Virus record (IMG/VR): IMGVR_UViG_3300045988_183134
Coordinates: 1-64,000 of that record
DNA length: 64,000 nt
Strand: one strand, 5' to 3'
From: a virus
In this document: positions 11,303-46,906 of the stretch, piece by piece
Layout: every line of letters begins with the position of its first letter
Position numbering within the stretch: position 1 is the first letter of the stretch
The notes under the pieces: generated by a model
What the model saw: only the letters and a program-made list of their open reading frames with translations
Database searches by the model: none
Told to the model about the DNA's origin: nothing
Made by a program: the position numbers and the translations under genes

Positions 11303-13189
11303 TCATTGCACGATTTCGCCCAGGTCATTTGCGTATTTCGGGTCACACATCATGAAGTAGTTGACGGGGCCGTACTCCAGACCGAGCTCCTGCGCGTATG
11401 CCTTGATAGTTTCCAGAACGTCCTCTTTCTTGAGGCCAAACTTGGAATGCAGACGGGCAAACTCTTTGTCAGAGACAGAAACGCAAGAGCAATTTTCTGC
11501 ATCGGTTTCTTTGCTGCCCAGCATCCCGTCAAAGATGTCCTGCCCTGCACAGAGAATCGTCTCATTGTTCATCGCATAGGCGATAACGGAAGCCTTACAG
11601 TCAAAGTCGCTGTCTTCCACAAGGAAATCCTCAGGGCGGCCGTGACGTTCAACAACGTTTTCATAGATGTCCCGGAGTTCGATAGGAGCAGAAGGAGCGG
11701 TCAGCGCTGCTTTATGAAGGCGCATGAATTCCACAAACTTTTCATCCGAGAGGGTATCGGTATAAAAGCCGATGCCGGAAACGCGAACCTTCACTTCGCT
11801 GGCAAAGTAATCGTCAATTTTGGAGACGATTTTCTGCTGAACCCGCTTGTACGCTTCCTGAACATTGGAAGCCGTGTAAAATACCGGGAACTTCATGATG
11901 TCGATTCCCTCCGGCAGACTCGCGTCATAGGCCGCATCAATGCCGCCTCGCAGCGCCGGAACCGCGTCATGCAGCTCTTTCACAGAAGAAATGTATCCGG
12001 TAATGTACAGCTCATCGTTTTTGCTGTAATGCCCGATAAGTCCTACATAGAGAGTCTGCATCAGCATCCGCTTGAAGCTGAACCAACAAAGACGAATGGG
12101 TAGAATGACATTAGCAGCCGTACCTTCCGCACGATAGGTGCCGGGGGCAGAGACCTTTTCCAGCAGAATCTGGTCGTTCTTGTCACCGTATTTTTCCTTG
12201 AAAAGAGCTTGAAGAATTTCAGTGGACGAAAGAGGAGTGGACATTGGAATCGTTTCATTCAGAAAAGAGAGGAATGCATCCACGTTGTCTTTCTGCCATG
12301 CGTCATCAGACATGCTTGCACGCTGCATAGAGAGCTTGTCTTTCCCGTCGTCAGGCAAGGGCTTATACCCACAGGCGATACGAAGCTCGTTCTCCGTGAC
12401 AGCATCCGTTGCGCTTGCAATTTTCTTGATGGTATTCTCGGTCGGCTGAGCTTTCGCGTTGCCGTTCGCAAGGTTACTGATATATCCACGAGTCAGCCCC
12501 GCTTGAAACGCAAACTTGCCCTGTGTGCGGGTTCCAATGGCTTTTTTGACCAGCGATGCCAGCCTTTGAAAGTCGGGCTCTTTGGGAAAGGTGGCCTCCG
12601 TATCCTTATTGCTGTTCTTTTCAAGTACCGACTTGTCCCAACCGGTGACAAGAGAATACCCAATATCCTTCAAGGATTGATAGGCAACCCCGTTCTGGTC
12701 AAGAGCCGGGGAGTAAATACCGCTGTTATCTTCCAGCTGCTCTACTGCCTCACGCATCATCCTTGCTTCGTTCATCAGGATGACGTCCGGGGCTTCAAGC
12801 CGGGCAAGACTCTTGTACCGATTATTGAGGCGCTCGACTCGTGCGGCCAATGCAGTGATGTTGGCAACTTGGTCTTCCGTTGCATGGGCAGAGATATCTG
12901 CACCAAGTTCAAAATGGTTCAGTGCAGGAATATCCACGCCTTTGCTCTTGGCGAATTCCACAATGGCTTCCGCGCCATAGAAACGCTTCTCATGGGCTGC
13001 GACAACTTTCGTTATCGTGTCGGCCGAGTTGTCCAGCTCAAGCACTTCACCTTTTCCGGCATCCTCGACATAACACCTGGCGTTGGTGAGAAAGCCTTTC
13101 AAAAAATCAGCATCCACATCCAGCTTCTTAGCGATGTCGGGCAGCTGCTTATAGAAAATCACGCGCGTGGCGAGGTTAACAGAAATCAT
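11303..13189 (-). CDS. large protein with a central XRE-type HTH
   Basis: 628 aa, AAAGGAG RBS; HTH KFAFQAGLTRGYISNLANG; one of three minus-strand genes, divergent from the operator region. Confidence 0.8.
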   Translation of the reverse strand: MISVNLATRVIFYKQLPDIAKKLDVDADFLKGFLTNARCYVEDAGKGEVLELDNSADTITKVVAAHEKRFYGAEAIVEFAKSKGVDIPALNHFELGADISAHATEDQVANITALAARVERLNNRYKSLARLEAPDVILMNEARMMREAVEQLEDNSGIYSPALDQNGVAYQSLKDIGYSLVTGWDKSVLEKNSNKDTEATFPKEPDFQRLASLVKKAIGTRTQGKFAFQAGLTRGYISNLANGNAKAQPTENTIKKIASATDAVTENELRIACGYKPLPDDGKDKLSMQRASMSDDAWQKDNVDAFLSFLNETIPMSTPLSSTEILQALFKEKYGDKNDQILLEKVSAPGTYRAEGTAANVILPIRLCWFSFKRMLMQTLYVGLIGHYSKNDELYITGYISSVKELHDAVPALRGGIDAAYDASLPEGIDIMKFPVFYTASNVQEAYKRVQQKIVSKIDDYFASEVKVRVSGIGFYTDTLSDEKFVEFMRLHKAALTAPSAPIELRDIYENVVERHGRPEDFLVEDSDFDCKASVIAYAMNNETILCAGQDIFDGMLGSKETDAENCSCVSVSDKEFARLHSKFGLKKEDVLETIKAYAQELGLEYGPVNYFMMCDPKYANDLGEIVQ

Positions 13190-13201
13190 GGTGTACTCCT
13201 T

Positions 13202-13323
13202 TCAAATATGTCATTTGCTGTATAATAATGTCATCTTCTGTAATTATAATAGCACATCTCGTACTAAAAAGCAAGCATGAATTTACAATAAATGACAATA
13301 AAATACACAAGATGACATATTTG
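13202..13323. promoter_or_regulatory. divergent control region: two ~39-bp inverted repeats carrying four A(A/G)ATGACAT operator-like sites
   Basis: ATGTCAT at 13208 and 13228, ATGACA(A/T) at 13292 and 13312, 20-bp spacing in each pair; minus-strand TTGCTT-17-TATTAT lies between them. Confidence 0.6.
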
Positions 13324-13426
13324 GGCAAAGCGGTTGATTTCCGAGCCTTTGCTACCCCATGACGGAACGTGCCCTGTGCGTCTTGTCTATGCCACAGTTT
13401 TGTCACGGCTTTGCCATATTTTTGCC

Positions 13427-13454
13427 TTGTGCATCCGTGCGAATTGAATATGAT
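13427..13454 (+). promoter_or_regulatory. dyad-box promoter, family copy
   Basis: TTGTGC atcc GTGCGAA ttgaa TATGAT. Confidence 0.55.
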
Positions 13455-13513
13455 GGGAAATATAAAATAAATAAGTGTAAGCCGCAGAGGATAGGTTTCT
13501 GCGGCTTCTTTTT
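13455..13513 (+). terminator. promoter-proximal leader ending in an intrinsic terminator
   Basis: AAGCCGCAG..CTGCGGCTT hairpin at 13479-13507 followed by CTTTTT. Confidence 0.6.
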
Positions 13514-13528
13514 GTGTTTTCTAAATTT

Positions 13529-13708
13529 CATCCGGAACTGTGCGACAACTGGAACCGTAAGCTCAACACCCGCATCGACCCGATGCAGGTAACAGCTTCC
13601 GGCACAAAGGCTGTTTACTGGGTCTGCACCAAGTGCGGGCGCAAATGAAAAGCATCCATCAACGACAGGGTACAGGGGAAAGCAGAATGCCCTACTCTGA
13701 AGTGCCAC
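13529..13708 (+). pseudogene. remnant of a DUF4379-type zinc-ribbon repeat, paralog of 13950-15818
   Basis: HPELCDNWN..YWVCTKCGRK*KASIND..ECP aligns to HPELLKEWD..HWICSKCGHKWEAPING..TCP; no start codon; TGA sits where the paralog has Trp. Confidence 0.6.
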
Positions 13709-13749
13709 TATATATATTCTCTCATTTCATTAAATAAAAGCTATCATAA

Positions 13750-13789
13750 ACGCACGCATGCATTCAAAAAATGTGTGCGTGCGTTTTTT
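13750..13789 (+). terminator. intrinsic terminator
   Basis: ACGCACGCA..TGCGTGCGT hairpin followed by TTTTTT. Confidence 0.65.
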
Positions 13790-13895
13790 GTGCGTTTCCG
13801 CACATTTAACGCTCATTTTTTTGTGGGGACCAGCCCGTGACATAATAGATTCAGACGGAAGAAATAAACAGCCTTATTCAAATAAGTAAAAAGGC

Positions 13896-13930
13896 ATCCT
13901 ATGCAGAGAGATTCTGCATAGGATTTTTTA
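13896..13930 (+). terminator. hairpin plus T-tract directly upstream of 13950
   Basis: ATCCTATGCAGA..TCTGCATAGGAT followed by TTTTTTA. Confidence 0.55.
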
Positions 13931-13949
13931 TTAAAGAGGGAAATTCAAT

Positions 13950-15818
13950 ATGGCAGCGAAAATAAATAGAACAGGCAAAACATACGGAGATTTAACAGTT
14001 CTCGAAACTATCCCCGGCTCTAATTCAAAAGCAGATACCTATTTGGTGAAATGTAACTGCTGCGGAAACACAATGATAATTGGTATCGATGCGCTCTTGA
14101 AAGGGTTAAAGTGTAAAGACTGCCGAGGTAAAGACCGTAAACGTACATACCAGGATTTGGTTGGCGAAGAACACAACGGTATCAAAGTTATTTCTTTGGC
14201 AGAAGATGCGATTGGAAGCACGGGGCATAGAAACATTCGTTATAACTGTATGTGTAGCTGCGGAAAAGAGTTTGTTGCTTATCGCTCTTCTTTGCTGCGG
14301 GGAAAAGTGAAGTCTTGCGGTTGTTGCAAACACATTACCGAAGCTTCGAAAATGCTGGTAGATAATGCAGAAGCTATGCAAGACTATGACTTTGCAAAAA
14401 ATAAGGACGTAGATGTCAGTATGCTGACACAAGGAAGCAATATTGTTGTATGGTGGAAATGCTCTGCTTGTGGCACGGAATGGCAGGCAAGCGTATATCA
14501 TTACATCCAGCGTATCAAGAGTTGCCCGATATGCAGCACTATCGATAAAGGACAGACCTCGTTCCAAGAACAAGCAGTAGCGTATTATGCAAAAAAGTAT
14601 TTTTCAGAGGCTGTTATTGGAAACAAGAAAGTTATTGGAAAAGAGCTGGACATTTACATCCCCTCCATTCGCACTGCAGTAGAATACGATGGTGTTCGAT
14701 ACCATTCTGATGAGAAAAGAGTGAAAAATGACGAAGAAAAGTCCGAAAAATGCAAGCAGAATGGAATTCGGATAATTCGTATTCGCGAGCATGGGCTTCA
14801 GGAAATTCGTAATAGCGAGAATATCATCAGAGAAAACAATAGAGGGCACGCAACGCTCGACGCAGCAATTCGCCAATGCTTAGAGATGCTTGGTGTTTCT
14901 GAACCTAACATTGATACACAAAAGGATTCAAAAGACATCTATCATCAATACAAAGATTACAAAGCTGAACGAAGTATGGGCGGACGGCATCCGGAACTCC
15001 TGAAAGAATGGGACTACGAACTGAATGTAGGCATTGACCCGATGATGGTGTCATCATCTAGCTCAGAAATGGTTCATTGGATTTGCTCTAAGTGCGGGCA
15101 TAAATGGGAAGCACCCATCAATGGCAGAGCAAAAGAAAACGCAACATGTCCTGTTTGTACAACAGGCAAAAGAAGACGGAACGAAAAGAACAACCTTGCT
15201 ACAGAACATCCTGAAATTGTTGCTGAATGGGATTACGAAAAAAACAAGAATTTGAAGCCCGAATATTTCTCATCCGGGTCTGCAGAAAAATGCTGGTGGA
15301 AATGCAAAAACGGTCATTCCTACAAGATGATAATAGCCGATAGAGTATACGGGCATGACTGCCCTCAATGCTATAAACAAAAACACTTCAAGAGTGTGAT
15401 TTGCGTTGAAACAAAAGAGAGATTTTCTACAGCAAAAGAGGCTTCTCTTAAATACGGGATTAGCGGCGGTTCGCCTATCTTGAACTGCTGCAACAAGCTA
15501 CGTACAGTTGCCGGAGGATATCATTGGTTATTTGCCAATGAATACGAAAGCATGACAGAAGAGGAAGCAGATGCCTTTTTGAAAGCAAATCCATCACGCG
15601 ATAAGTTCGTCAAAAAAGGAAGAACTTACGATTTAGCTAATATGCACTTTGGTAAGCTAAAGGTCATTGAGAGAGCAGGAAGCCAAAACGGTCATGCTCG
15701 ATGGAAATGTCAATGTGATTGCGGAAACGAATGCTTTGCGATAACCCAAAGTCTTGTAGAAAACAAGAAAACATCATGCGGTCATTGTAATACGGAAAAT
15801 ACATCCAGTGCTGAGTAA
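13950..15818 (+). CDS. multi-zinc-ribbon protein with Vsr/DUF559-like PD-(D/E)xK core and NUMOD1-like HTH (homing-endonuclease-like mosaic)
   Basis: repeated W.C..CG..W......R....CP.C ribbons; ELDIYIP..AVEYDG..YH..IRIIRIRE core; GISGGSPILNCC..AGGYHW motif. Confidence 0.7.
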   Translation: MAAKINRTGKTYGDLTVLETIPGSNSKADTYLVKCNCCGNTMIIGIDALLKGLKCKDCRGKDRKRTYQDLVGEEHNGIKVISLAEDAIGSTGHRNIRYNCMCSCGKEFVAYRSSLLRGKVKSCGCCKHITEASKMLVDNAEAMQDYDFAKNKDVDVSMLTQGSNIVVWWKCSACGTEWQASVYHYIQRIKSCPICSTIDKGQTSFQEQAVAYYAKKYFSEAVIGNKKVIGKELDIYIPSIRTAVEYDGVRYHSDEKRVKNDEEKSEKCKQNGIRIIRIREHGLQEIRNSENIIRENNRGHATLDAAIRQCLEMLGVSEPNIDTQKDSKDIYHQYKDYKAERSMGGRHPELLKEWDYELNVGIDPMMVSSSSSEMVHWICSKCGHKWEAPINGRAKENATCPVCTTGKRRRNEKNNLATEHPEIVAEWDYEKNKNLKPEYFSSGSAEKCWWKCKNGHSYKMIIADRVYGHDCPQCYKQKHFKSVICVETKERFSTAKEASLKYGISGGSPILNCCNKLRTVAGGYHWLFANEYESMTEEEADAFLKANPSRDKFVKKGRTYDLANMHFGKLKVIERAGSQNGHARWKCQCDCGNECFAITQSLVENKKTSCGHCNTENTSSAE

Positions 15819-15852
15819 TTCGGTGCTGGATTTTTTATTGGGAGATATAGAC

Positions 15853-16905
15853 ATGGCAAAGAACGATAATTTGCATAAGGCGAAGGATGCGAAGAATGAT
15901 GAGTTCTACACCAGAATTGAGGATGTCGCTGAAGAACTGCGGCACTACAAGAAGCATTTCGCAGGCAAGGTTGTATTCTGCAACTGTGACGACCCCACTT
16001 GGTCTGCTTTCTGGCGGTACTTTCACCTGAACTTTGCAGAACTTGGCTTAAAGAAGCTGATTTCCACGCACTATGACCGTACCGAACCAACCTACAAGAT
16101 GGAGTACGAGGGCGGGAATGATAATGATGTGGAAGTCGGTGTAAAAACCCCGCTGGAAGGCAACGGCGATTTCCGGAGCAAGGAATGTCTCGACTTGCTG
16201 GATGAGTGTGATATTGTGGTAACCAATGAGCCGTTCAGCTTATTTCGCGAGTATGTTGGTACACTGATGCAGCACGGCAAAAAGTTCCTGATTATCGGGA
16301 ATAAGAACGCCATTACATACAAAGAGTTTTTTCCACTTCTGAAAGAAAACAAAGTGTGGATTGGCTATAGCTCACCTTCCGAGTTTGATACCCCAAATGG
16401 AATGACCAAGAAAATCAACGGTCTAACAAGATGGTTCACCAACCTCGACATCCAGAAGCGCCACGAGAAACTGATTCTTTGGCAGCGGTACTATGATAAT
16501 GACGGAAATCCTATGCCGGATGCGAAGGAGAGGTATCCGCATTACGATAACTATGATGCTATCAATGTGGGCAAGGTTGCTGATATTCCAATTGATTATC
16601 AAGGTGTAATGGGTGTGCCGATTACGTTCTTGGATAAGTATAATCCTGAACAATTTGAGATTGTTGGACTGTTAAATTCAAGCAGCGAATCATTAGCAGG
16701 TATTAAGGAACTCAGAATTTATGATGAATTCAAAGAAGTAAAACAAGACGGCTCATTTACAAAAGCAACTGGAAAAAAGACGAGAGGAAATCCCGTAATA
16801 AATGGAAAAGCTAAAAGCGGAAATTACTATATAAATCCAAATACTGGAGAATGTGTACATTCTACTTATGCACGCATTCTTATTCACAAAAAGGAAAATG
16901 AATGA
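15853..16905 (+). CDS. EcoRI-methylase-family N6-adenine DNA methyltransferase
   Basis: ATG after GGGAGAT; N-terminal DEFYT box and VVTNEPFSLFREY (NPPF-like catalytic motif). Confidence 0.75.
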   Translation: MAKNDNLHKAKDAKNDEFYTRIEDVAEELRHYKKHFAGKVVFCNCDDPTWSAFWRYFHLNFAELGLKKLISTHYDRTEPTYKMEYEGGNDNDVEVGVKTPLEGNGDFRSKECLDLLDECDIVVTNEPFSLFREYVGTLMQHGKKFLIIGNKNAITYKEFFPLLKENKVWIGYSSPSEFDTPNGMTKKINGLTRWFTNLDIQKRHEKLILWQRYYDNDGNPMPDAKERYPHYDNYDAINVGKVADIPIDYQGVMGVPITFLDKYNPEQFEIVGLLNSSSESLAGIKELRIYDEFKEVKQDGSFTKATGKKTRGNPVINGKAKSGNYYINPNTGECVHSTYARILIHKKENE

Positions 16906-17663
16906 TGGCAGAATATGATGTATTTATTTCCCACGCCAACGCTGATAAAGAACAATTTGTTGAAGAATTGTATAAATCTTTTCAAAAACTTGGAATTAAG
17001 ATTTTTTACGATTCTGATTCAATTGAGTGGGGCGACGATTGGGCATGCAAAATTCAGGATGGATTGGCAAAATGTCGTTACGGCGTTATTGTTATCTCAA
17101 ACAATTTTTATGATAGAGAGTGGACTGAAAAGGAATTAAAATCTCTATTGGTACGTCAAAACGATAATGGTGAAAATGTAATTTTGCCGATTTTATATAA
17201 CACTAACATTGATGAACTCAAGAAACACTGCAAAAGAGGATGTTATAAAGATTTAGCAAAAATTCAATTTATCAATAAGGAAGAGGTCGATGTTAAAGAC
17301 ATCACAATCCTTCTTGCCCGTAAACTACTCAAAGACAGCCGCATTGCAAATTCAACGGTACAAAAGTCCAAAGACAATAAAGCTATGTTTGACAATTTTT
17401 TTGAAAAAAACAATAGTATTGATTTTTATAGATGGCTTGACAGTTTGATTAAAAGCAATAACCAATGGAGCGATGGTTACCCTAATGACTTTATTGGCTG
17501 GCATCTCTTTAAGTATAATGGTAAATCAATTGCATTGATACAGGAGCAAGAGGACGAAAGTAATCCTTATGATAATTATATCAATTGTCAATATCGTATC
17601 AATCCGATATATTATAGCGATTTCTGTAAATACTTTGAAACTTATATTCGTCCACAGATGTAA
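16902..17663 (+). CDS. TIR-domain protein with an uncharacterised C-terminal domain
   Basis: YDVFISHANADKE..GIKIFYDS..W..I..GL..C.YGVIVIS..F..REW.EKEL; start overlaps the methylase stop (ATGA). Confidence 0.8.
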   Translation: MMAEYDVFISHANADKEQFVEELYKSFQKLGIKIFYDSDSIEWGDDWACKIQDGLAKCRYGVIVISNNFYDREWTEKELKSLLVRQNDNGENVILPILYNTNIDELKKHCKRGCYKDLAKIQFINKEEVDVKDITILLARKLLKDSRIANSTVQKSKDNKAMFDNFFEKNNSIDFYRWLDSLIKSNNQWSDGYPNDFIGWHLFKYNGKSIALIQEQEDESNPYDNYINCQYRINPIYYSDFCKYFETYIRPQM

Positions 17664-17677
17664 AGGAGACTACACCT

Positions 17678-18814
17678 ATGAAAATCACAGAAACCAAAAT
17701 CAAGGTATCTGACCTTGTCGAGAACTACAAGGACAATGGTGATGGCGGAGTCTTTGGTTACAATGACCGCCTTACGATTCGCCCGTCCTTCCAGCGTGAG
17801 TTCATTTACGGGGAGAAGCAGCGTGCAGCCGTCATCGATTCCGTGATGAACGGATTTCCGCTGAACGTCATGTACTGGTCTAAGACCGGTTCGGATTCCT
17901 ACGAGGTTCTCGATGGTCAGCAGCGGACAATTTCCATTGCGCAGTATGTCAACAAAGACTACCCCGTCAAAATCAACGGCAATGACAAGTTCTTCCAAAA
18001 CTTGACCAACGAGGAAAAGCAGACAATTTTGGACTATGAATTGACGGTCTACATCTGCGAAGGCACCGAATCCGAGAAATTGGAATGGTTCAAGCGCATC
18101 AATATCGCTGGTGAAGTTCTGACTCCGCAGGAATTGCTGAACGCTACCTATACGGGACCGTGGCTGGCAGATGCAAAGAACTATTTCTCGAAGCGCAACT
18201 GTGTTGCTGCGAAAATGGCCGACGGATACCTGAAAGGCAACCCAATTCGGCAGGAGTTGCTGGAAAAGGCACTGGCGTGGATTGCTGACCGTGATGGTCT
18301 GGCATCCGGGCAGATGTATATGGCGGTTCACCAGCATGACGAGGACGCCAATGACCTCTGGCTTTACTTCCAGTCGGTAATCAACTGGGCTAAAATGCTG
18401 TTCCCGACGAAGCGGAAGGGGATTACTGATGCACAGGCATGGGGACTGCTTTACAACAAGTACCATTCAAGGCAGTACAACAGCAACGCTCTGGAAGCAG
18501 ACATCAAGCAGCTCGTGATGGACGATGATGTGACGAAAAAAGCAGGCATCGTTCCGTACATCCTGTCTGACCGTATATGGCGTGACGAGAAGCACCTGTC
18601 TCTGCGTGCGTTTACTGAATCCCAGAAACTCCGCGCCTATGAGCGGCAGGGTCATAAGTGCCCGCTGTGCGTTGCGAATGGCATCAACACTGAGTATGCC
18701 TTTGAGGACATGGAAGGCGACCACATCATTCCTTGGAGCAAGGGCGGACATACCACTGATGACAATCTGCAGATGCTGTGCAAGAAGTGTAATGCGGCGA
18801 AGTCGGATATGTAA
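17678..18814 (+). CDS. DUF262 (GmrS/ParB-like) domain fused to HNH endonuclease
   Basis: AAAGGAG RBS; FQREF..VLDGQQR N-terminal motifs; C-terminal CPLC..GDHIIPWSKGG..N.Q.LCK.CN..K His-Me finger. Confidence 0.8.
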   Translation: MKITETKIKVSDLVENYKDNGDGGVFGYNDRLTIRPSFQREFIYGEKQRAAVIDSVMNGFPLNVMYWSKTGSDSYEVLDGQQRTISIAQYVNKDYPVKINGNDKFFQNLTNEEKQTILDYELTVYICEGTESEKLEWFKRINIAGEVLTPQELLNATYTGPWLADAKNYFSKRNCVAAKMADGYLKGNPIRQELLEKALAWIADRDGLASGQMYMAVHQHDEDANDLWLYFQSVINWAKMLFPTKRKGITDAQAWGLLYNKYHSRQYNSNALEADIKQLVMDDDVTKKAGIVPYILSDRIWRDEKHLSLRAFTESQKLRAYERQGHKCPLCVANGINTEYAFEDMEGDHIIPWSKGGHTTDDNLQMLCKKCNAAKSDM

Positions 18815-18900
18815 TGGTGGGAGCATATCATGAAAAAATATCGCTATTTCATGTTCGGTATGTTCACCGGCACAGATGGGAATACAAATGTCGCATTTTT

Positions 18901-19305
18901 TCAAAAATCCAATTTATAATCCCCTGTAAGAATCCCATCAACCTCCATTGTTGCGTTCGGGTCTGCTCGAAACCCAGCTTTATGACAAAAGACTTCCATT
19001 TCACGAGTTAGTACAGATTGCATAACGATACGATGCACACCATAGTCTTCGCAAATTTCTTTCAACGCATCGAGCAACAGAGACATTGTACCATGACGCT
19101 TTATAGAAAACCTAACACGTGAAATAACCAAAGCAAAATTACAAAGAAATGAAACCCTAAGTTCATTTTCACCGTCATCAGAAGTAATCCAGACTGTGCG
19201 CATACTATTAGATACGTTGCAAATACAACCTTGCTTATCCTCGATGATATTCACAAGCCGTTGCGTTTGTTCCTTCGTAAGCTCAAGCATACCGGGCAAT
19301 GCCAT
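18901..19305 (-). CDS. GNAT-like acetyltransferase
   Basis: 134 aa, GGAGGA RBS; R.HGTMSLLLDAL..A...G...I core resembles GNAT motif A; convergent with the island operon. Confidence 0.55.
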   Translation of the reverse strand: MALPGMLELTKEQTQRLVNIIEDKQGCICNVSNSMRTVWITSDDGENELRVSFLCNFALVISRVRFSIKRHGTMSLLLDALKEICEDYGVHRIVMQSVLTREMEVFCHKAGFRADPNATMEVDGILTGDYKLDF

Positions 19306-19449
19306 AAAGATTCCTCCGACAGTTATGTAGTATCATTTCATACATATATTATACATGTATTCTATACCGTTGGCCAAGCTGCTAGGTCGTTATTTTACAA
19401 AAAAATTCAAAAACAGGAGCCGTTCATACCACAGGAAAGCCTGCGGGTT

Positions 19450-19797
19450 TTCTAGCTCCCAATTATAACATTGGTGCCCGGTATTTCATCCGCGAGGTAA
19501 CAAAACCCATGTCAAAGAAGGCATGGTCTCAGTGTAAGGCTAAAGTTCCTGACATTGAGCGTAGAACCCAATGCACATTGTACTCCCTTAAACAGTTGCA
19601 TTCACTGTTGAGCCCCCCCGTGGCGACTCAACAACCCAGGCCCATCTGTTGGGATTACACTGTGTTGCGAGAACTTTGCGGGAGACTAACCCCTATGTGG
19701 CGACCAATGCCGTCAGGCATTGTTAGCTAAGTTCGGGTCGTATCTCTACCTTCGGGTTACGCAGAGACTTACCGTGGGGTTACAACCCACGGAGAAG
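19450..19797 (+). ncRNA. ORF-free, GC-rich, hairpin-dense region; candidate structured RNA of unknown class
   Basis: UUCG-loop hairpin ACC-TTCG-GGT, CCGTGGG-GTTACAA-CCCACGG, ATGCC-GTCA-GGCAT; repeated GTGGCGAC; no credible ORF. Confidence 0.35.
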
Positions 19798-19836
19798 CCC
19801 CAACTATAGCCGAAAGGTTTAGGTGGGGAGGTCCAC
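19798..19836 (+). repeat. conserved GNRA-capped 5' UTR hairpin, copy A
   Basis: CCCCaaCTATAGCCGAAAGGTTTAGGTGGGGAGGTCCAC; 34/39 identical to 62319-62357, including a G.U to G-C change. Confidence 0.7.
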
Positions 19837-19870
19837 GATGAAGCATACAAAATTAGCGAGGTAGAAGTTA

Positions 19871-20260
19871 ATGTTTAATACTAAGAAAACCGTCCGCCAG
19901 GACATTCACGAAAACGAAGTAGCTTACTCCGGCACTGTGACTGCCGTCACCCACATGACCATCGTGGTCTTCATCCCGGCACTCGATGTCGAGGTGGATG
20001 TCAAGCGTAACCCCGATGCATCCGTCCAGAACGGTTCTGTCCCCGAAGTAGGGGATATTGCTACTGTGCAAGTAGTGCTTGAAGACGGCGATTATAACGC
20101 TACCGCTGCCACGTTCGTGCCACAGCAGGACATCAAGGAAGACATTCCCGTCACCGATGACGACTTCTTTGATGACGATTTGGATGATGAAAAAGCAGAG
20201 GAGTATGACTGGTACAACGAGCCACCTGCAGAAGATTTTGGCAATTGGGACATTGACTGA
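19871..20260 (+). CDS. acidic hypothetical protein
   Basis: GAGGTA RBS; 129 aa with D/E-rich tail DDDFFDDDLDDEKAEEYDW. Confidence 0.65.
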   Translation: MFNTKKTVRQDIHENEVAYSGTVTAVTHMTIVVFIPALDVEVDVKRNPDASVQNGSVPEVGDIATVQVVLEDGDYNATAATFVPQQDIKEDIPVTDDDFFDDDLDDEKAEEYDWYNEPPAEDFGNWDID

Positions 20261-42011: not shown

Positions 42012-42087
42012 GCTGGTTTAGCTCAGCTGGTAGAGCAACTGATTTGTAATCAGTCGGTCATCGGTTCAAGTCCGATTTCCAGCTCCA
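42012..42087 (+). tRNA. tRNA-Thr(TGT)
   Basis: hand-folded cloverleaf, loop TTTGTAA, CCA encoded; U.U mismatches at 6-67 and 7-66. Confidence 0.75.
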
Positions 42088-42560
42088 GACGCTATCCGTT
42101 GGATGTATCGAAATCACATGATACGATGCTATACACAACATCTGGCGGACAGCATGCCACCCATTAAGGCGGCCTCCTCGTGGCGGGTGGCGGACAGCGG
42201 CTCTTGCGGCTGCTGACGAATGTCTTAGAAGCATGCAAACGTACGAGCATCCCCGTCAAGTCGGGGCGCATCCAGACGCGACACAGCCGTAAAGGCGAGA
42301 TTGCTGCACGGCAACTGGTAAGTTTCGCCGCAGTCTCACACACAGCCCAACGACAACCGTTAACCCGATTTGACAGGGAATCAACGACAGGGCTCAAAAT
42401 TTGAAGTTGACCAACACCCAAGCGCTTTCTTGGATTCTCGCGTATCGTCAACGATGAGGTTCGCAAGATTGTCAGGTGGTGTGAAGATGACATCCGGGGA
42501 TGACGACCTACTAAACGGATGTCATGGCGGGGCTAAGTGAGGGTTCACCCGCAATCTTAT
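42088..42560 (+). ncRNA. 473-nt ORF-free structured spacer; candidate large ncRNA
   Basis: 10-bp stem ATGACATCCG..CGGATGTCAT, CCCCG-TCAAGT-CGGGG, several GNRA-type loops; only short, unsupported ORF-track entries (42164-42493 on the - strand, 42180-42404 on +). Confidence 0.35.
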
Positions 42561-42635
42561 GCAGGTATCGTATAACGGCTAATACTCCGCCCCTCCAAGG
42601 CGGAGACGCGGGTTCGACCCCCGCTACTTGCTCCA
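42561..42635 (+). tRNA. tRNA-Gly(TCC) with C33
   Basis: perfect CCGCC/GGCGG anticodon stem, loop CCTCCAA; D-arm TCGTATAACGGCTAATAC resembles Gly-UCC; discriminator U; CCA encoded. Confidence 0.75.
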
Positions 42636-42907
42636 CACGTCGCAGTCACCGTACGCCACGACGTTAAACTTGGTGAGCATGGTCCACTTGTGGTCCGCTG
42701 TCCGAATGTCGATGAGACAGCCTCAAAAATAATAGACAAACAGGTGCTGTGCCTGAAAGTATTCGAAAGTCCCGGTGTTAGTCGCGAATAAGACCGGAAA
42801 ACGGTGAATAGGGTACAATACAGAATCTATCGGCGTGGCTGCCGAATGGTGCTGGATGCGAGTTGGCTTCTCGCTCAAGGGGTGACCAGCATAAAACACC
42901 CTATCGT
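42636..42907 (+). ncRNA. 272-nt ORF-free spacer
   Basis: no credible ORF; GC-rich inverted repeats. Confidence 0.25.
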
Positions 42908-42983
42908 GCTCGATTAGCTCAGTTGGTAGAGCAGCGCATTCGTAACGCGCAGGTCGGCAGTTCGAACCTGCCATCAAGCCCCA
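42908..42983 (+). tRNA. tRNA-Thr(CGT)
   Basis: cloverleaf, loop TTCGTAA, anticodon arm GCGCATTCGTAACGCGC; one C.A acceptor mismatch; CCA encoded. Confidence 0.8.
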
Positions 42984-43021
42984 TTACCCAATGAAGCGAC
43001 AATAGAAAGGAGATGAAACTT

Positions 43022-43405
43022 ATGGAACAGGCAATTATCAATGTTGAAGGTACGACTACCATTGAAACCGCTGCAGCGGCAAAAAAGCTGATTGAAATGT
43101 TTGGCAATCAGAACGTCCGCGCCATCGCTGTCAACCGTGTAAACGACAAGAGCGACGAGGTCATTGTTGAACTCGATTTCGTTCCCGGTTTGGCACCGCA
43201 TCTGCACGGCTTCACGCTTCAGGTTAATGGCTTGACCTGTGGTTATGCTGGTACTGGTCCTTCCAATCTGTATGAAGTCCTGCAGGCGGCTGGCGTGAGT
43301 GAAGCTCAGGTAGCACGCGAGGACATCACTCAGAAGAGCACAAAAACCATTCCTCTGCGCCTGGAACGCGCCGTGACTCAGTACGGCGACTTCCAGTTTG
43401 CGTAA
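43022..43405 (+). CDS. hypothetical protein embedded in the tRNA array
   Basis: ATG 10 nt after GGAG (the track start at 43013 is too close to the RBS); 127 aa. Confidence 0.6.
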   Translation: MEQAIINVEGTTTIETAAAAKKLIEMFGNQNVRAIAVNRVNDKSDEVIVELDFVPGLAPHLHGFTLQVNGLTCGYAGTGPSNLYEVLQAAGVSEAQVAREDITQKSTKTIPLRLERAVTQYGDFQFA

Positions 43406-43435
43406 CGCTATTTGGCGGGCTTGACCCGCCATCAT

Positions 43436-43511
43436 GGAGGGATAGCTTAGCTGGATAAAGCACCTGCCGCAAAGCAGGGTATCGATGGTTCGAGGCCATC
43501 TCCCTTCTCCA
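43436..43511 (+). tRNA. tRNA-Cys(GCA)-like with a 6-nt anticodon loop
   Basis: good acceptor, D and T arms; CCTGC/GCAGG stem encloses CGCAAA (no U33); CCA encoded. Confidence 0.55.
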
Positions 43512-43870
43512 TCCAGACACCCTTTCGCTTCCTTTCGCCAAAGGTATCTGGGGTATTGTACTGCATTGCGTGTAGTACGGCCAATCAGGCGCGGAACTCC
43601 GAAACCATACCACGAAGAATTTTATCCTCTCCGCGCAGCATGGACATGCGATTTTACGGGGATAAATTCAAACCGAAATTGTGTCGAGTGGCGAAGACGG
43701 TTGCGACACTGGCGAAGCACATATCTGCTTCGTCAACCATCCATGAGAAAGCCTCCACGTGGCAGATGGTGGGCAACGCAGCAAAGCTGCGGCTGATTTC
43801 TTTCAAACCGGTATCTGAATAAATGCAGATAAATAGACGAAAAAATCAAAAAAGCAAAGGAGTACACAGC
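43512..43870 (+). ncRNA. 359-nt ORF-poor spacer
   Basis: no RBS-supported ORF between the tRNA and 43871. Confidence 0.25.
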
Positions 43871-45004
43871 ATGAGTAATCAGAAAATCATCAAAGCAATC
43901 GCAGGGATTGCAGCAGCCGGTATGATGGCAACTTGTCTGCCTGTCGCAGCATTCGCAGCCACCGGCGACACCTATCATTTCTCTTTCAGCAACGGTTCTT
44001 CCCAGGACCTGGCTCCGGGCGGCTCTATGACGTTCCCGGCAAGCCAGTATGACTACGGTTACTGGATTACCCTGCAGGGCCACGGCGGCTACACCTACAA
44101 CTACTATCCCGGCGACACTCTGCCGTACGATGCAGTTGACCAGTGGTTCACCGCTGACGGCATCACTTCCTGCTATGCGGCCGAAGGTAATCCGCGTTCC
44201 ATCACCATCAACTATCAGATTGACGGCAACACTGTGCTGACCGAAACTGACACCGCCACTTTCCCCGGCAGCGTTGATGGTCAGAGCGTTGAAGCCTGGA
44301 CCACGGATTCCGGTGATACTTACACCGCATCCAGCAAGAGCCTGAACCATGACCGCCTGTTCTACTACCTGGGCGACGACATCCACGACAATGTCCTGAC
44401 CCTGAAAGCCACTTCTGCATCCACTCCCGATGACGGCAAGGATGACAACAAGGGCGATGACAAGGGCGATGTCACCAACCCCGACGATAAGGGCGACAAC
44501 AAGGGCGACAATACCGGCGACAGCGGCACCACCACTCCCGATGACAAGGGCGACGTAGTGGCCCCCGATAAGGACAACACCGGTAAGGACAACACTTCTA
44601 CCGGCTCCAACAAGGGCAACGGTACTACCACCACTACTCCGACCGCTCCTCGCAAGAACGTTGAAGTCTCTGAGCACGGTGAAATTGCCGCCGCTATTGC
44701 CAATGGCACCTGGGGCAATGAGTACACCGTCTGCACCAGCTGTGGCTATCACAACTGGACCCGCAAGGGTAACGTTTACGTCTGTGACCATTGTGGTCAT
44801 GAAGTTCTGACTGTTAAGGGCGCTGATGGCGTCAAGGGCTATGCTGGCACTCTGGCTGGCAACGAGCCCCAGTACGCTTCTACCTCTGAAGCTCAGGCTG
44901 CTGCTGAAAAGCGTGAAGCCGCTTATGCCGCTTCCATCGCTGCTTTGCAGGCACAGGTTGCCGCTCGTGAAGCTGCTTATGCTGCTTCCCTGGGCATCCA
45001 CTAA
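43871..45004 (+). CDS. secreted GC-rich protein with (D/N)KGD repeats and a C-terminal Cys4 motif
   Basis: AAAGGAG RBS; signal peptide ..ATCLPVAAFAATG; DDKGDNKGDNTGD repeats; CTSCG..VCDHCGH; the antisense ORF 43733-45001 is a shadow. Confidence 0.8.
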   Translation: MSNQKIIKAIAGIAAAGMMATCLPVAAFAATGDTYHFSFSNGSSQDLAPGGSMTFPASQYDYGYWITLQGHGGYTYNYYPGDTLPYDAVDQWFTADGITSCYAAEGNPRSITINYQIDGNTVLTETDTATFPGSVDGQSVEAWTTDSGDTYTASSKSLNHDRLFYYLGDDIHDNVLTLKATSASTPDDGKDDNKGDDKGDVTNPDDKGDNKGDNTGDSGTTTPDDKGDVVAPDKDNTGKDNTSTGSNKGNGTTTTTPTAPRKNVEVSEHGEIAAAIANGTWGNEYTVCTSCGYHNWTRKGNVYVCDHCGHEVLTVKGADGVKGYAGTLAGNEPQYASTSEAQAAAEKREAAYAASIAALQAQVAAREAAYAASLGIH

Positions 45005-45041
45005 TTTGCCATCCTCTAACTAACGGTAATCGATAGTTATT

Positions 45042-45115
45042 CGAGGATTCGCCAAACGGTAAGGCATCAGGCTTTGACCCTGACAACGGTTGTTCGACTC
45101 GACCATTCTCGGCCA
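45042..45115 (+). tRNA. tRNA-Gln(TTG)
   Basis: cloverleaf, loop CTTTGAC, D-arm GCCAAACGGTAAGGC; CCA encoded. Confidence 0.8.
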
Positions 45116-45195
45116 ACGCTCACTTTCATGCGCATCGGAAGTGAGATTCCTCAAAGCTGTGTTCCCATAAGCAAGGCACGGAAGATGCGCGACAA

Positions 45196-45271
45196 GTGCT
45201 CGTAACTCAATCGGTAGAGTACCCGACTTTTAATCGGGGTGTTCGGGATTCGATTTCCCGCGAGCGCACCA
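45196..45271 (+). tRNA. tRNA-Lys(TTT)
   Basis: cloverleaf, loop CTTTTAA; CCA encoded. Confidence 0.85.
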
Positions 45272-45302
45272 TGCCCGGCAGAGCATTATCTGCCACTTTT
45301 GT

Positions 45303-45378
45303 GGGTGTATAGCTCAGTAGGCAGAGCGGCGGACCGTTAATCCGTTTGTCGCAGGTTCAAATCCTGCTACGCCCGCCA
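45303..45378 (+). tRNA. tRNA-Asn(GTT) with C33
   Basis: cloverleaf, loop CCGTTAA; CCA encoded. Confidence 0.8.
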
Positions 45379-45381
45379 TAA

Positions 45382-45459
45382 GCTCCTCTGGTGAAATTGG
45401 CAGACACAGTGCGCTCAAACCGCACCGTTTTGAGGGTTCGAATCCCTCGGGGAGTACCA
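45382..45459 (+). tRNA. tRNA with CAA (Leu) anticodon and Leu-type D-arm but no long variable arm
   Basis: perfect GTGCG/CGCAC stem, loop CTCAAAC; D-arm TGGTGAAATTGGCAGACAC; 6-nt variable region; A73; CCA encoded. Confidence 0.6.
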
Positions 45460-45488
45460 TGTCCGGCAGTACAACAACTGCCATTTAT

Positions 45489-45564
45489 GGGTTGTTAGCT
45501 CAGCTGGTAGAGCAACGGACCGTTAATCCGTGGGCCGCAGGTTCAAACCCTGTACAACCCGCCA
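45489..45564 (+). tRNA. tRNA-Asn(GTT) with C33, second copy
   Basis: cloverleaf, loop CCGTTAA; CCA encoded. Confidence 0.8.
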
Positions 45565-45567
45565 TAT

Positions 45568-45642
45568 GCTCCAGTGGCGAAACTGGCAAACGCGGCGGCT
45601 TTATGTCCCGTTTTACTCTGGGTTCGACTCCCAGCTGGAGTA
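45568..45642 (+). tRNA. tRNA with TAT (Ile, AUA) anticodon on the same Leu-like scaffold
   Basis: loop TTTATGT, stem has a C.C at 31-39; D-arm TGGCGAAACTGGCAAACGC; A73; no encoded CCA. Confidence 0.5.
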
Positions 45643-45649
45643 TCTATAT

Positions 45650-45725
45650 AGGGGTGTAGCTCAAGTGGTAGAGCAGCGGTCTCCAAAACCGCTTGTTGCA
45701 TGTTCGAGTCGTGTTACCCCTGCCA
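45650..45725 (+). tRNA. tRNA-Trp(CCA)
   Basis: AGGGG 5' end, loop CTCCAAA; CCA encoded. Confidence 0.85.
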
Positions 45726-45735
45726 CAATAAGAAA

Positions 45736-45764
45736 AGCCGTCCTCACATAAGAGGCGGCTTTTT
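45736..45764 (+). terminator. intrinsic terminator after the first tRNA block
   Basis: AGCCGTCCTC..GAGGCGGCT hairpin followed by TTTTT. Confidence 0.65.
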
Positions 45765-45807
45765 GTTTTGGAGAGTATACAGACCAAAAAACTAAACCAC
45801 AAGTTGA

Positions 45808-45835
45808 TTGCAGATGTGCAAAAACATGGTATAAT
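45808..45835 (+). promoter_or_regulatory. promoter related to the dyad-box family (shifted box)
   Basis: TTGCAG at GTGCAAA aacatgg TATAAT. Confidence 0.45.
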
Positions 45836-45869
45836 AATATCAGAACGAAACGAAAGGAGATACCCCAAA

Positions 45870-46010
45870 ATGCTGTGCAACACTGTTAATGTCATGTCGT
45901 ATGAGTATAGTTACGAATATTCTGAGTTCATGTCCTTTGAACGCAGTTTTATTTCTCATACTCCTCGACAGGCAAAAACAGACCATGTACAGATGCGGTG
46001 CGTCTTCTAA
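45870..46010 (+). CDS. 46-aa hypothetical peptide
   Basis: AAAGGAG RBS 8 nt upstream of the ATG at 45870. Confidence 0.4.
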   Translation: MLCNTVNVMSYEYSYEYSEFMSFERSFISHTPRQAKTDHVQMRCVF

Positions 46011-46028
46011 GCGATAACTGCATGTCAT

Positions 46029-46064
46029 AGCTGCTTGTCGAGATTTCGGCAGGCAGCTTTTTTG
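46029..46064 (+). terminator. intrinsic terminator
   Basis: AGCTGC..GCAGCT hairpin followed by TTTTTT. Confidence 0.6.
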
Positions 46065-46095
46065 TTGCCTGCAATACAGAAAGGCAGCAAGAAAA

Positions 46096-46317
46096 ATGAA
46101 CGTTCCTACTATTGATATCCAGCAGACAGGTGCCAATATCAAGGCCCTGCGAAAGGCAGCAGGCATCAAGGTGAAGGATGTGGCAGACATGCTCGGTGTA
46201 TCTCCGCAGGCGGTTGCTAAATGGCAAGCCGGAACAGCGCTTCCCACCATCGATAACCTTGTGATATTAGCAGCAATGCTCGATACGAAAATTGATGACA
46301 TCCTTGTCATCGCATAA
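46096..46317 (+). CDS. XRE/Cro-type HTH regulator
   Basis: 73 aa; IKALRKAAGIKVKDVADMLGVSPQAVAKWQAG..P.....ILA.ML. Confidence 0.8.
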   Translation: MNVPTIDIQQTGANIKALRKAAGIKVKDVADMLGVSPQAVAKWQAGTALPTIDNLVILAAMLDTKIDDILVIA

Positions 46318-46346
46318 ACCCTCGCCGCAGGATTGCGGCTATATAT

Positions 46347-46426
46347 GGCCCGTTGGACGAATTGGTAGAGTTGCCGCCCTTTCACGGCGGAGGTTATTGT
46401 GGGTTCGAAACCCACACGGGTCACCA
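46347..46426 (+). tRNA. tRNA-Glu(TTC), atypical D-arm and 8-nt variable loop
   Basis: acceptor GGCCCGT/ACGGGTC-A and arm CCGCCCTTTCACGGCGG match bacterial tRNA-Glu; CCA encoded. Confidence 0.7.
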
Positions 46427-46427
46427 T

Positions 46428-46503
46428 GCTTCTGTAGCTCAACAGGTAGAGCAGTGGTCTGAAGAGCCACGTGCAGCTGGTTCGAATCCAGCCGGAAGCA
46501 CCA
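46428..46503 (+). tRNA. tRNA-Phe(GAA)
   Basis: cloverleaf, loop CTGAAGA; CCA encoded. Confidence 0.85.
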
Positions 46504-46527
46504 TCGAGGTTTTATACCTCATTCTAT

Positions 46528-46612
46528 GTGTCGGTATGCAAGTGGTTAAAGCAAACGGTCTGTAAAACCGCTCCGTTACGGTTCACTGGTTCGAATCCAG
46601 TCCGACACACCA
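46528..46612 (+). tRNA. tRNA-Tyr(GTA), class II
   Basis: loop CTGTAAA, variable arm CCG-TTA-CGG; CCA encoded. Confidence 0.85.
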
Positions 46613-46615
46613 TAA

Positions 46616-46689
46616 GGCCCCTTCGACAAGTTGGTCTAAGTCGCCAGCCTCTCAAGCTGGAGTCGGCAGTTCGAGTCTGCCAGGGGTCA
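46616..46689 (+). tRNA. tRNA-Glu(CTC)
   Basis: perfect CCAGC/GCTGG stem, loop CTCTCAA; Glu-like acceptor GGCCCCT/AGGGGTC-A; no encoded CCA. Confidence 0.7.
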
Positions 46690-46725
46690 TACAAGCACCT
46701 ATGTTATGTCAAAAAGGTGCATTAT

Positions 46726-46815
46726 GCAGAGGTCGCCTAACGGTAGGGCAGCAGCTTGCTAAGCTGCCGTCGCGGAAATCGCGGCATGTGAGTTCGAATC
46801 TCACCCTCTGCGCCA
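46726..46815 (+). tRNA. tRNA-Ser(GCT), class II
   Basis: loop TTGCTAA, long variable arm CGCGG-AAAT-CGCGG, G73; CCA encoded. Confidence 0.8.
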
Positions 46816-46818
46816 TCT

Positions 46819-46906
46819 GCTTGCTTGTTCGAGTGGTTGATGAAATCGGTCCAGAAAACCGACGATGGGAGACTGTCCGAAGGTTCGAATCCTTCAGCAA
46901 GCGCCA
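46819..46906 (+). tRNA. class II Ser-like tRNA with loop CCAGAAA (anticodon AGA, C33)
   Basis: perfect acceptor GCTTGCT/AGCAAGC, TCGGT/ACCGA stem, long variable arm, G73; CCA encoded. Confidence 0.55.

Follow-up and report, generated by a model that had tools for sequence, protein, structure and literature searches.

We analysed a 64,000-nucleotide (nt) stretch of viral DNA (positions 1 to 64,000 of the IMG/VR record IMGVR_UViG_3300045988_183134), referred to below as the window, and concentrated on a 5.4-kb block at 13950-19305, which encodes in order a zinc-ribbon protein with a nuclease-like core (gene A), an adenine methylase (M), a TIR-domain protein, a DUF262-HNH nuclease (R) and a small convergent protein (gene E). 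Comparison with related loci suggests that 15853-18814 is a type II-like restriction-modification (R-M) operon in a variable region of a phage, with the TIR gene lying in a cargo slot between M and R. An original prediction, drawn from the letters of the window alone, had proposed a cassette, carried by the phage for defence or exclusion, that includes an adenine methylase, and this much is supported by the comparative sequence evidence. It had also treated M, TIR and R as one three-gene system, whereas the TIR gene turns out to be one of at least ten alternative cargoes of the M-R slot, and the trio is not obligate. For the TIR protein itself we tentatively favour, at a little below an even chance, the role of a second-line abortive-infection NADase that is restrained or cued by the R-M proteins in a manner analogous to PrrC and Ronin.

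Judged from their sequences and neighbourhoods, M and R form a type II-like R-M pair of an ordinary and widely conserved kind, with R as its predicted restriction endonuclease. The DUF262-HNH assignment of R holds (GmrSD_N, 5.9e-20; HNH, 2.4e-13), and the motifs DGQQR (residue 79), DHIIP (348) and NLQMLC (363) are intact. R matches the REBASE-derived type II profile REase_II of PADLOC (PDLC03418) over positions 1-371 of 372 (1.5e-132), and its C-terminus matches HNH, HNH_5, HNH_4 and Endonuclease_7; no DUF1524 match in R was reported by Pfam at E ≤ 0.01, and a PDB sequence search with R returned spurious TetR-like matches only. More than 8000 homologues are 70-95% identical to R, and in every locus with an intact R among the approximately 50 examined, M lies upstream on the same strand. 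In loci L118-L121, distant relatives with 51-53% identity in R, M is immediately followed by R at a distance of 63-169 nt, and this arrangement is presumably the ancestral state.

These observations bear on the earlier reading of R as a modification-dependent type IV nuclease of the GmrSD/BrxU kind within a new, integrated M-TIR-R system. R does resemble GmrSD in carrying a GmrSD_N domain (6e-20) and in combining DUF262 with a His-Me nuclease, and it shares with GmrSD, BrxU and SspE an N-terminal DUF262/ParB-like domain with DGQQR. Unlike these enzymes, however, R has a canonical HNH C-terminus, a constant methylase partner and a type II match from end to end. The type IV reading is contradicted because the methylase partner is obligate, the nuclease is HNH rather than DUF1524 and the full-length profile match is to type II enzymes; moreover, a methylase partner that makes the very mark recognised by a modification-dependent enzyme would be lethal. 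The integrated three-component part fares no better, as the TIR gene is replaced or absent in most M-R loci. We regard the combined reading as hardly tenable, since the comparative data already refute most of it. A further HNH protein that resembles R but is shorter (256-285 amino acids, aa) often lies downstream of R with 0-2 genes in between: it has 281-285 aa in L040, L087, L091, L101, L104 and L125, 275 aa in L046 and L047, and 256 aa in L036 (6162-6932) and L062. Only the 256-aa L036 protein is confirmed as HNH by Pfam, and the window has no such protein.

M had been called an EcoRI-type methylase, in agreement with its match to the Pfam family EcoRI_methylase over positions 1-344 of 345 (8e-111) and to MTase_II of PADLOC (3.8e-109), and it is predicted to be an EcoRI-family N6-adenine DNA methyltransferase; a PDB sequence search with M gave no match. 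Motif IV of M reads NEPF (residues 125-128; window 16225-16236). Among 59 related copies the motif is NPPF in 49, NPPW in 5 and NEPF in 5, the last being the window, L103 and three near-identical loci (L042, L097, L049). Such a methylase is accompanied by an intact R, and either NEPF is tolerated or protection works otherwise.

The slot between M and R was delimited by scanning IMG/VR with R, which yielded 43 loci, and by mapping loci onto the window with tblastn and blastn. Across some 45 related contigs, DNA homology with the window runs from 15828 to about 16667, stops at about 16662-16668, resumes at 17662-17678 and continues until R ends at 18809-18815. The conserved left arm consists of M's first ~272 codons (to about 16667), and between the arms lies a hypervariable cassette (Table 1). 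In L109 both arms are 94-97% identical to the window and the slot content is wholly different; in L098 the arms are 91-97% identical and the cargo again differs. Each of these comparisons reads as a clean cassette swap, and together they show slot cargo being exchanged, by what appears to be recombination within the conserved arms that M and R provide. Elsewhere the slot holds a 220-aa membrane protein (L036), a 275-aa protein (L039, which is 97% identical to window 11811-16662 and carries gene A too) or a decayed fragment (L037 and L038). The slot ORFs (open reading frames) fall into 11 clusters, one of which is a remnant of the methylase 3' end, and comprise at least ten unrelated cargo families. 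These are the window's own TIR type with its C-terminal domain (TIR+C; 19 loci on about 14 distinct contigs including the window), the 220-aa membrane protein, whose family has a 493-aa member matching Pfam HEPN (8.9e-5), the 275-aa family, further families of 277 aa, 330 aa (marked by an RNQVTH motif) and 96-338 aa, another membrane protein of 185 aa, a DUF4238 protein (2e-14), a protein with a zinc ribbon and a DUF4145-like domain (2.3e-4), and a CAP12/Pycsar-type TIR (1.6e-22; PADLOC PDC-S35, 9e-24). Cargo genes have a GC content of 25-41%, against about 46-50% for the arms in most loci, and, every cargo being AT-rich, the GC poverty of the window's TIR gene is best seen as a signature of slot cargo. 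The M-TIR-R neighbourhood nevertheless recurs, on about 14 distinct contigs, as the original prediction would have it.

Two ideas about the slot were rejected. Apparent M-TIR pairs devoid of a restriction gene (L042, L048-L050) all proved by tblastn to have R, and the TIR protein's C-terminal domain is no adaptor common to the slot cargoes, as blastp found no similarity. In L037 and L038 (4500-4898) a small DUF4145-like frame is broken by an in-frame TAG, and after it the region around the R start codon is repeated in truncated form, which reflects either decay or stop-codon recoding. DUF4238 genes recur near R-M operons in several positions: sharing an hsd operon with a TIR gene (L063, 8966-9883), two genes after R (L001, 10382-11260) and as the slot cargo itself (L098, 4057-5004). 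Since a TIR system containing DUF4238 is a validated defence system in E. coli (PMC11350192), some loci may, by analogy, combine the two.

The TIR protein consists of a TIR domain (residues 3-124; TIR_2, 5.4e-20), as the original prediction had it, a linker helix and a C-terminal alpha2-beta4-alpha domain at about residues 156-253. Its closest PDB sequences are BtpA/TcpB, AbTir, PdTir and BtTir (6e-23 to 2.5e-18), and an AlphaFold2 (AF2) model of the protein (pLDDT, the predicted local distance difference test, 76.7) finds PdTir, BtTir, BtpA and AbTir in Foldseek at 1e-11 to 5e-9. W74, T75, E78 and L79 are invariant in 42 full-length homologues that are 46-81% identical. E78 of the motif W74xxxE78 aligns with the glutamate of WTNYEL in AbTir and of WPAREL in BtpA, which we take to be the catalytic residue of those enzymes; the glutamate on which the earlier call of a TIR effector depended is thus kept, and the domain looks catalytically competent, a predicted NADase. 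The TIR fold and the W-x3-E motif are common to this protein and its nearest structural relatives. Unlike AbTir, BtpA, PdTir, BtTir and the single-gene TIR proteins of E. coli, it has an N-terminal TIR followed by a private C-terminal domain, shows no coiled coil or N-terminal sensor domain, and sits in an R-M operon. Profile scans of the protein gave no HEPN or ABC match.

Among PADLOC profiles the TIR region scores best against PDC-S66 (1e-40), a match that is partial (residues 3-110 against profile positions 147-253 of 282), and also matches ThsB1 (9e-26); in both PDC-S66 and Thoeris ThsB only the TIR part is matched, with the domain order reversed. The ThsB-type match and the position of the TIR gene immediately upstream of R would suit a Thoeris-like scheme, in which the TIR protein makes a signal of the cyclic ADP-ribose (cADPR) type upon infection and thereby activates the DUF262-HNH protein R as effector. 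TIR proteins of the AbTir/BtpA clade reportedly make cADPR isomers, and DUF262 domains bind nucleotides. This scheme is nonetheless quite improbable, because R is 92-96% identical in loci with non-TIR cargo and because TIR+C proteins occur in type I hsd operons that have no DUF262-HNH gene. Where R is slightly more divergent, the cargo is missing or no longer intact, and Thoeris has a ThsA partner, whereas no ThsA-type effector (SIR2, Macro or SLOG) is present among the block's five genes and none was called in related loci.

The C-terminal domain is rare. Modelled alone it again adopts the alpha2-beta4-alpha arrangement (pLDDT 85), and Foldseek found no significant match for it in PDB or BFVD (best E values about 1 and about 0.35); a resemblance to winged helices in these searches was weak and topologically inconsistent, and was rejected. 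Pfam, NCBIfam and PHROGs scans of the TIR protein recognised the TIR part alone, and a profile search against 1.84 billion representative proteins returned only 12 matches, three of which are stand-alone versions of about 120 aa. One of these, P0244 (L131), is encoded between two methylase genes, ahead of the gene for a 1161-aa ResIII helicase protein, in what appears to be another R-M-like operon. On this small sample, the domain is private to the TIR+C family and, where no TIR is present, tends to accompany methylase-containing restriction operons.

The genomic contexts of the family point in the same direction. Besides the many contigs with M-TIR-R, we found M-259aa-TIR followed by a degenerate R start (L003), HsdM-TIR-HsdS-73aa-HsdR (L005, a metagenome-assembled genome, MAG, of Lachnospiraceae), HsdM-TIR-HsdS-DUF4238-HsdR (L063), HsdR-HsdM-HsdS-TIR (L008) and HsdS-TIR (L057, L058). 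A conservative seed search placed an R-M gene within ±3 genes in 19 of 26 TIR+C loci, and the addition of tblastn, Pfam and remnant evidence raises this to 22-23 of 26; the neighbour classification used few seed proteins, and the counts are lower bounds. Genes positive for R-M are concentrated near the TIR gene (75/380, versus 19/475 farther off). The neighbourhoods thus show the TIR+C family living habitually inside predicted R-M operons, of EcoRI-like/DUF262-HNH type, of type I hsd type and in one case of a methylase-helicase type. Relatives that share the TIR domain only carry it at the C-terminus of proteins of 250-450 aa, and at least 20 of 48 lie in Clostridial hsd loci or beside C5 methylases; these Clostridial relatives in hsd loci are nearer to the PDC-S66 layout than the window's protein is, and their N-terminal domains have no Pfam or PADLOC family matches. 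In L009 (2026-8677) the TIR+C gene is followed by a gene for an AAA_13 ABC-ATPase, a Pfam family that we take to include the ATPase domains of PrrC and RloC, and then by one for a 1604-aa DEAD+UvrD double helicase; the two may be another defence module.

Close homologues of the TIR protein are encoded in type I hsd operons on the chromosomes of MAGs from Lachnospiraceae, Oscillospiraceae and Ruminococcus, which speaks against a purely offensive use by the phage, that is, a host-takeover or counter-defence enzyme that manipulates NAD+ or degrades or imitates immune signals and has come to lie in the R-M operon by chance. The alternative cargoes speak against it as well, as they include classic abortive-infection effectors (HEPN, Pycsar-type TIR). 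Such a use would accord with a large phage that encodes many accessory genes, and a TIR-II system has been reported in Caudoviricetes genomes (PMC11350192); on balance we consider it improbable.

The junctions of the operon agree with close co-expression. As the original prediction stated, M and the TIR gene overlap by ATGA (M stop TGA at 16903-16905, TIR ATG at 16902), a second ATG at 16905 being the start used by 252-aa database homologues, and R follows after 14 nt (TIR stop at 17663, then AAGGAG, then the R ATG at 17678). The claim of tight coupling among the three genes is supported, and spacers of 13-14 nt with a ribosome-binding site (RBS) separate the TIR gene from the next gene in type I and type II contexts alike.

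These observations can be assembled into a working model. M would mark resident DNA, as expected of its family, and R would cut unmarked incoming DNA, as its profile identity and obligate linkage to M suggest. The TIR protein would be made together with the R-M proteins through translational coupling and kept latent, with the C-terminal domain as its likely contact or sensor module. When restriction fails, for instance against invaders with an anti-restriction protein or with DNA that already bears the modification, the TIR protein would self-associate and destroy NAD+, possibly making cADPR isomers as well, and the loss of NAD+ would abort the competing infection, following the logic of PrrC-EcoprrI and RonA-HsdMS. 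We favour this PrrC/Ronin-like arrangement because the linkage extends across R-M types and the isolated C-terminal domain itself has an R-M context, and because the genes are tightly coupled in translation and PrrC, HEPN and RonA provide precedent. A bolder version seems to us less likely than not, though far from remote. Here TIR+C would be a dedicated R-M guard, the TIR equivalent of PrrC but active with R-M systems of several types, whose C-terminal domain docks on N6-adenine methylase complexes (EcoRI-like, HsdMS and a third type) and holds the TIR domain inactive until anti-restriction or R-M failure releases it, and the M-R slot would be a plug-and-play socket for at least ten suicide effectors served by one sensor.

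Several observations weigh against the PrrC/Ronin-like arrangement. The coupling of TIR to R and M is read from gene order only; the activity of M is not assured, NEPF replacing NPPF at motif IV; many M-TIR-R loci come from one phage lineage, and their counts overstate the number of independent events. Three TIR+C loci (L009, L010, L056) have no intact R-M partner, L055 has an R remnant only, and one stand-alone C-terminal domain (P0249, L133) lies in a HipA/NADAR island and is not linked to R-M. Some of these points would be accommodated if TIR+C were autonomous cargo, a single-gene abortive-infection system that senses phage through its C-terminal domain and for which the R-M genes are only a recombination hotspot and an expression platform. 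The diversity of the slot (at least ten unrelated families), the presence of one TIR family in both EcoRI-like and hsd operons, the three or four loci with no intact R-M genes and the demonstration that single-gene TIR proteins can by themselves confer abortive infection in E. coli (PMC11350192) all fit such an autonomous role and count against the coupled one; the foreign composition of the cargo and the match to PDC-S66, a single-gene candidate, fit it too. The match is limited to the TIR part of that profile, however, and an autonomous passenger would not readily account for R-M linkage in at least 19 of 26 loci and in several architectures, for near-zero intergenic distances in every context, or for the occurrence of the rare C-terminal domain alone in an R-M-like operon. 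We regard autonomous cargo as a serious possibility, somewhat less probable than the PrrC/Ronin-like arrangement.

The composition of the block and the signals around it fit a patchwork. The coordinates given earlier for all five genes are borne out (Table 1). The block had been described as visibly AT-rich, and at 42.3% GC it is indeed poorer in GC than the window as a whole (47.0%), with only 3% of equal-sized windows as GC-poor; the bias is uneven, with 41.7% in gene A, 42.3% in M, 32.4% in the TIR gene, 50.6% in R (above background) and 40.5% in gene E, and the AT-rich signal is driven by the TIR gene. The reported absence of the phage's "dyad-box" promoter was confirmed, there being no copy within one mismatch inside 13950-19305. 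A recurrent promoter motif, GTGCGAATTGCA followed by TACAAT, has copies at 573, 3161, 4371, 7510, 23168 and 36818, and matches within two mismatches number 20 against 9.3 ± 2.8 expected; this is probably the box that was meant. Variants of it stand at 13437 and 21900, and the box generally consists of GTGCGAATTGCA directly followed by TACAAT or TATAAT, with TTGC or TTGT usually about 17 nt upstream. The proposed bracketing of the block stands in part: terminator-like hairpins lie on the left and gene E is convergent on the right, but no hairpin is predicted between R and E. The hairpin at 15803-15831 separates gene A from M, and terminator-like sites are about twice as frequent as in shuffled sequence (12, versus 6.2 ± 2.0). 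We therefore replace the idea of a single island-system with that of a mosaic, because gene A is probably a separate mobile element, gene E is part of the backbone flank and the TIR gene is one of many cargoes.

Gene A had been described as a protein with zinc ribbons and a Vsr-like nuclease. The zinc ribbons are clear (three DUF4379 domains), and the Vsr-like core is only weakly matched: the region at about residues 227-293 (EYDGVRYHSDE) resembles MTES_1575 (5.8e-4; 20.3 bits, below the Pfam cutoff of 38.2), DUF2726 (2.1e-3), HEase of PADLOC (5.7e-5) and PDB entry 3r3p, a "mobile intron protein" (E 0.042). The gene is sporadic among relatives (L039, L098, L109, L111, L123-127), and it is probably a free-standing, mobile homing endonuclease of EDxHD/Vsr-like type outside the R-M operon. 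Like the EDxHD homing endonucleases of the I-Bth0305I type, it is free-standing and sporadically distributed, and its putative Vsr-like core has an apparent E-x-D…H-x-D pattern; unlike them, it shows weak similarity only (3r3p, 0.042), has three DUF4379 zinc ribbons as its DNA-binding part and is seen in no intron or intein context. Upstream of gene A, between two terminator-like hairpins, a short remnant ORF (Table 1) suggests debris of an older homing-endonuclease copy, and with it repeated gain and decay at this spot.

Other loci show related traffic. In the viral contigs of L123 and L125-L128 M, the slot and most of R are gone and a 3' remnant of R is kept beside gene E; in L123 and L125-L127 a DUF4379 endonuclease gene (418-424 aa) abuts the R remnant, which suggests that the R-M operon was replaced by a homing endonuclease. 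A conserved 437-aa protein with no Pfam match directly precedes M in about 20 loci, and in L001 (2522-6955), as also in L040-L042 and L049, extra methylases (one N6_N4, two C5) precede the R-M operon; in the window the putative homing endonuclease occupies the position that this protein or the extra methylases hold in relatives. Gene E had been called a GNAT acetyltransferase, the one domain call of the five that could not be upheld: Acetyltransf_10 matches at E 0.0088 with 16.5 bits against a cutoff of 23.6 bits, and NCBIfam, PHROG and PDB searches gave no support for GNAT. Related phages keep gene E as a conserved flank even when they have no R-M genes, and it appears to be part of the phage backbone.

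Since almost identical copies of the TIR gene are present on IMG/VR and human-gut contigs 216-346 kb long, and related R-M loci on viral contigs as long as 389 kb, the window belongs to a lineage of large (≥216-390 kb) human-gut phages. It carries 17 tRNA genes at 42012-46906, for one of which (43436-43511) ARAGORN gave an undetermined anticodon. A blastn search of 13000-20000 against INPHARED found no annotated relative and three short methylase matches only.

Table 1. Positions of genes and signals in and around the block (window coordinates)
Feature	Position	Strand	Remarks
Nearest promoter-motif copy	13437..13454	+	GTGCGAATTGCA + TAnAAT, 1 mismatch; just upstream of the block
Terminator-like hairpin	13479-13507		upstream of gene A
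Remnant ORF	13514..13648	+	44 aa; by eye, against gene A, resembles a treble-clef zinc ribbon of DUF4379 type (…YWVCTKCGRK)
Terminator-like hairpin	13896-13924		bidirectional; just before gene A
Gene A	13950-15818	+	622 aa
Terminator-like hairpin with T-run	15803-15831	+	overlaps the gene A stop; precedes the RBS and ATG of M
M (methylase)	15853-16905	+	350 aa from ATG 15853; ORF opens at GTG 15808
Hypervariable cassette	16668..17661	+	divergent M 3' end + cargo gene
TIR cargo gene	16902-17663	+	253 aa
R (DUF262-HNH)	17678-18814	+	378 aa
Gene E	18901-19305	-	134 aa, convergent

R-M is usually treated as a two-gene unit, whereas here the junction of M and R is a recombination-defined socket that exchanges putative abortive-infection effectors (TIR, Pycsar-type TIR, HEPN, DUF4145, DUF4238, membrane proteins and several unknowns), and a TIR family with a private C-terminal domain appears specialised to R-M operons of different types. 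In the open-access papers and preprints searched, we found no account of free-standing TIR genes placed between M and R or in an hsd operon, and none of type II R-M operons that contain a hypervariable slot for effectors. The segment 15853-18814 offers a clonable 3-kb case of TIR NADases that may be wired to restriction as a back-up layer, the other cargoes form a ready list of uncharacterised candidate effectors, and giant gut phages would carry layered exclusion systems. Even if the TIR gene is merely an autonomous passenger, the slot is a new kind of defence-gene hotspot inside an operon.

Suicide effectors embedded in R-M loci are an established concept, through PrrC, HEPN families and Ronin. 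TIR domains have been associated with restriction-type clusters before, as paraMORC4-TIR in R-M-like loci (Iyer et al. 2008, PMC2292703), in which a GHKL ATPase is joined to the TIR or encoded next to it; the operon here has none. In Ronin, RonA acts with an HsdMS decoy and anti-restriction proteins trigger cell death (Silas et al., bioRxiv 10.1101/2023.04.06.535777). Like the window, Ronin has a small effector gene tightly linked to R-M methylase genes; RonA is, however, a 61-aa membrane protein, usually found with no nuclease, whereas the window keeps a full R-M pair and a predicted enzymatic effector. PrrC is an anticodon nuclease whose gene lies inside an hsd operon of type Ic (EcoprrI), and at least 16 HEPN clades are linked to R-M (Anantharaman et al. 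2013, PMC3710099). The window differs from PrrC in that its effector is a predicted TIR NADase and not an ABC-ATPase-HEPN tRNA nuclease, a functional analogy and no family membership, and from EcoprrI in that its R-M system is type II-like (EcoRI-family M and DUF262-HNH R, with the TIR family also in type I operons) and phage-borne; silencing by the R-M proteins, as known for PrrC, is for the window's TIR protein a proposal from gene order. What the two share is a latent suicide effector gene placed inside an R-M operon, proposed as a second line when restriction is neutralised, and the R-M-linked HEPN genes have their counterparts in the HEPN and DUF4145-like cargoes that occupy the same slot in the window's relatives.

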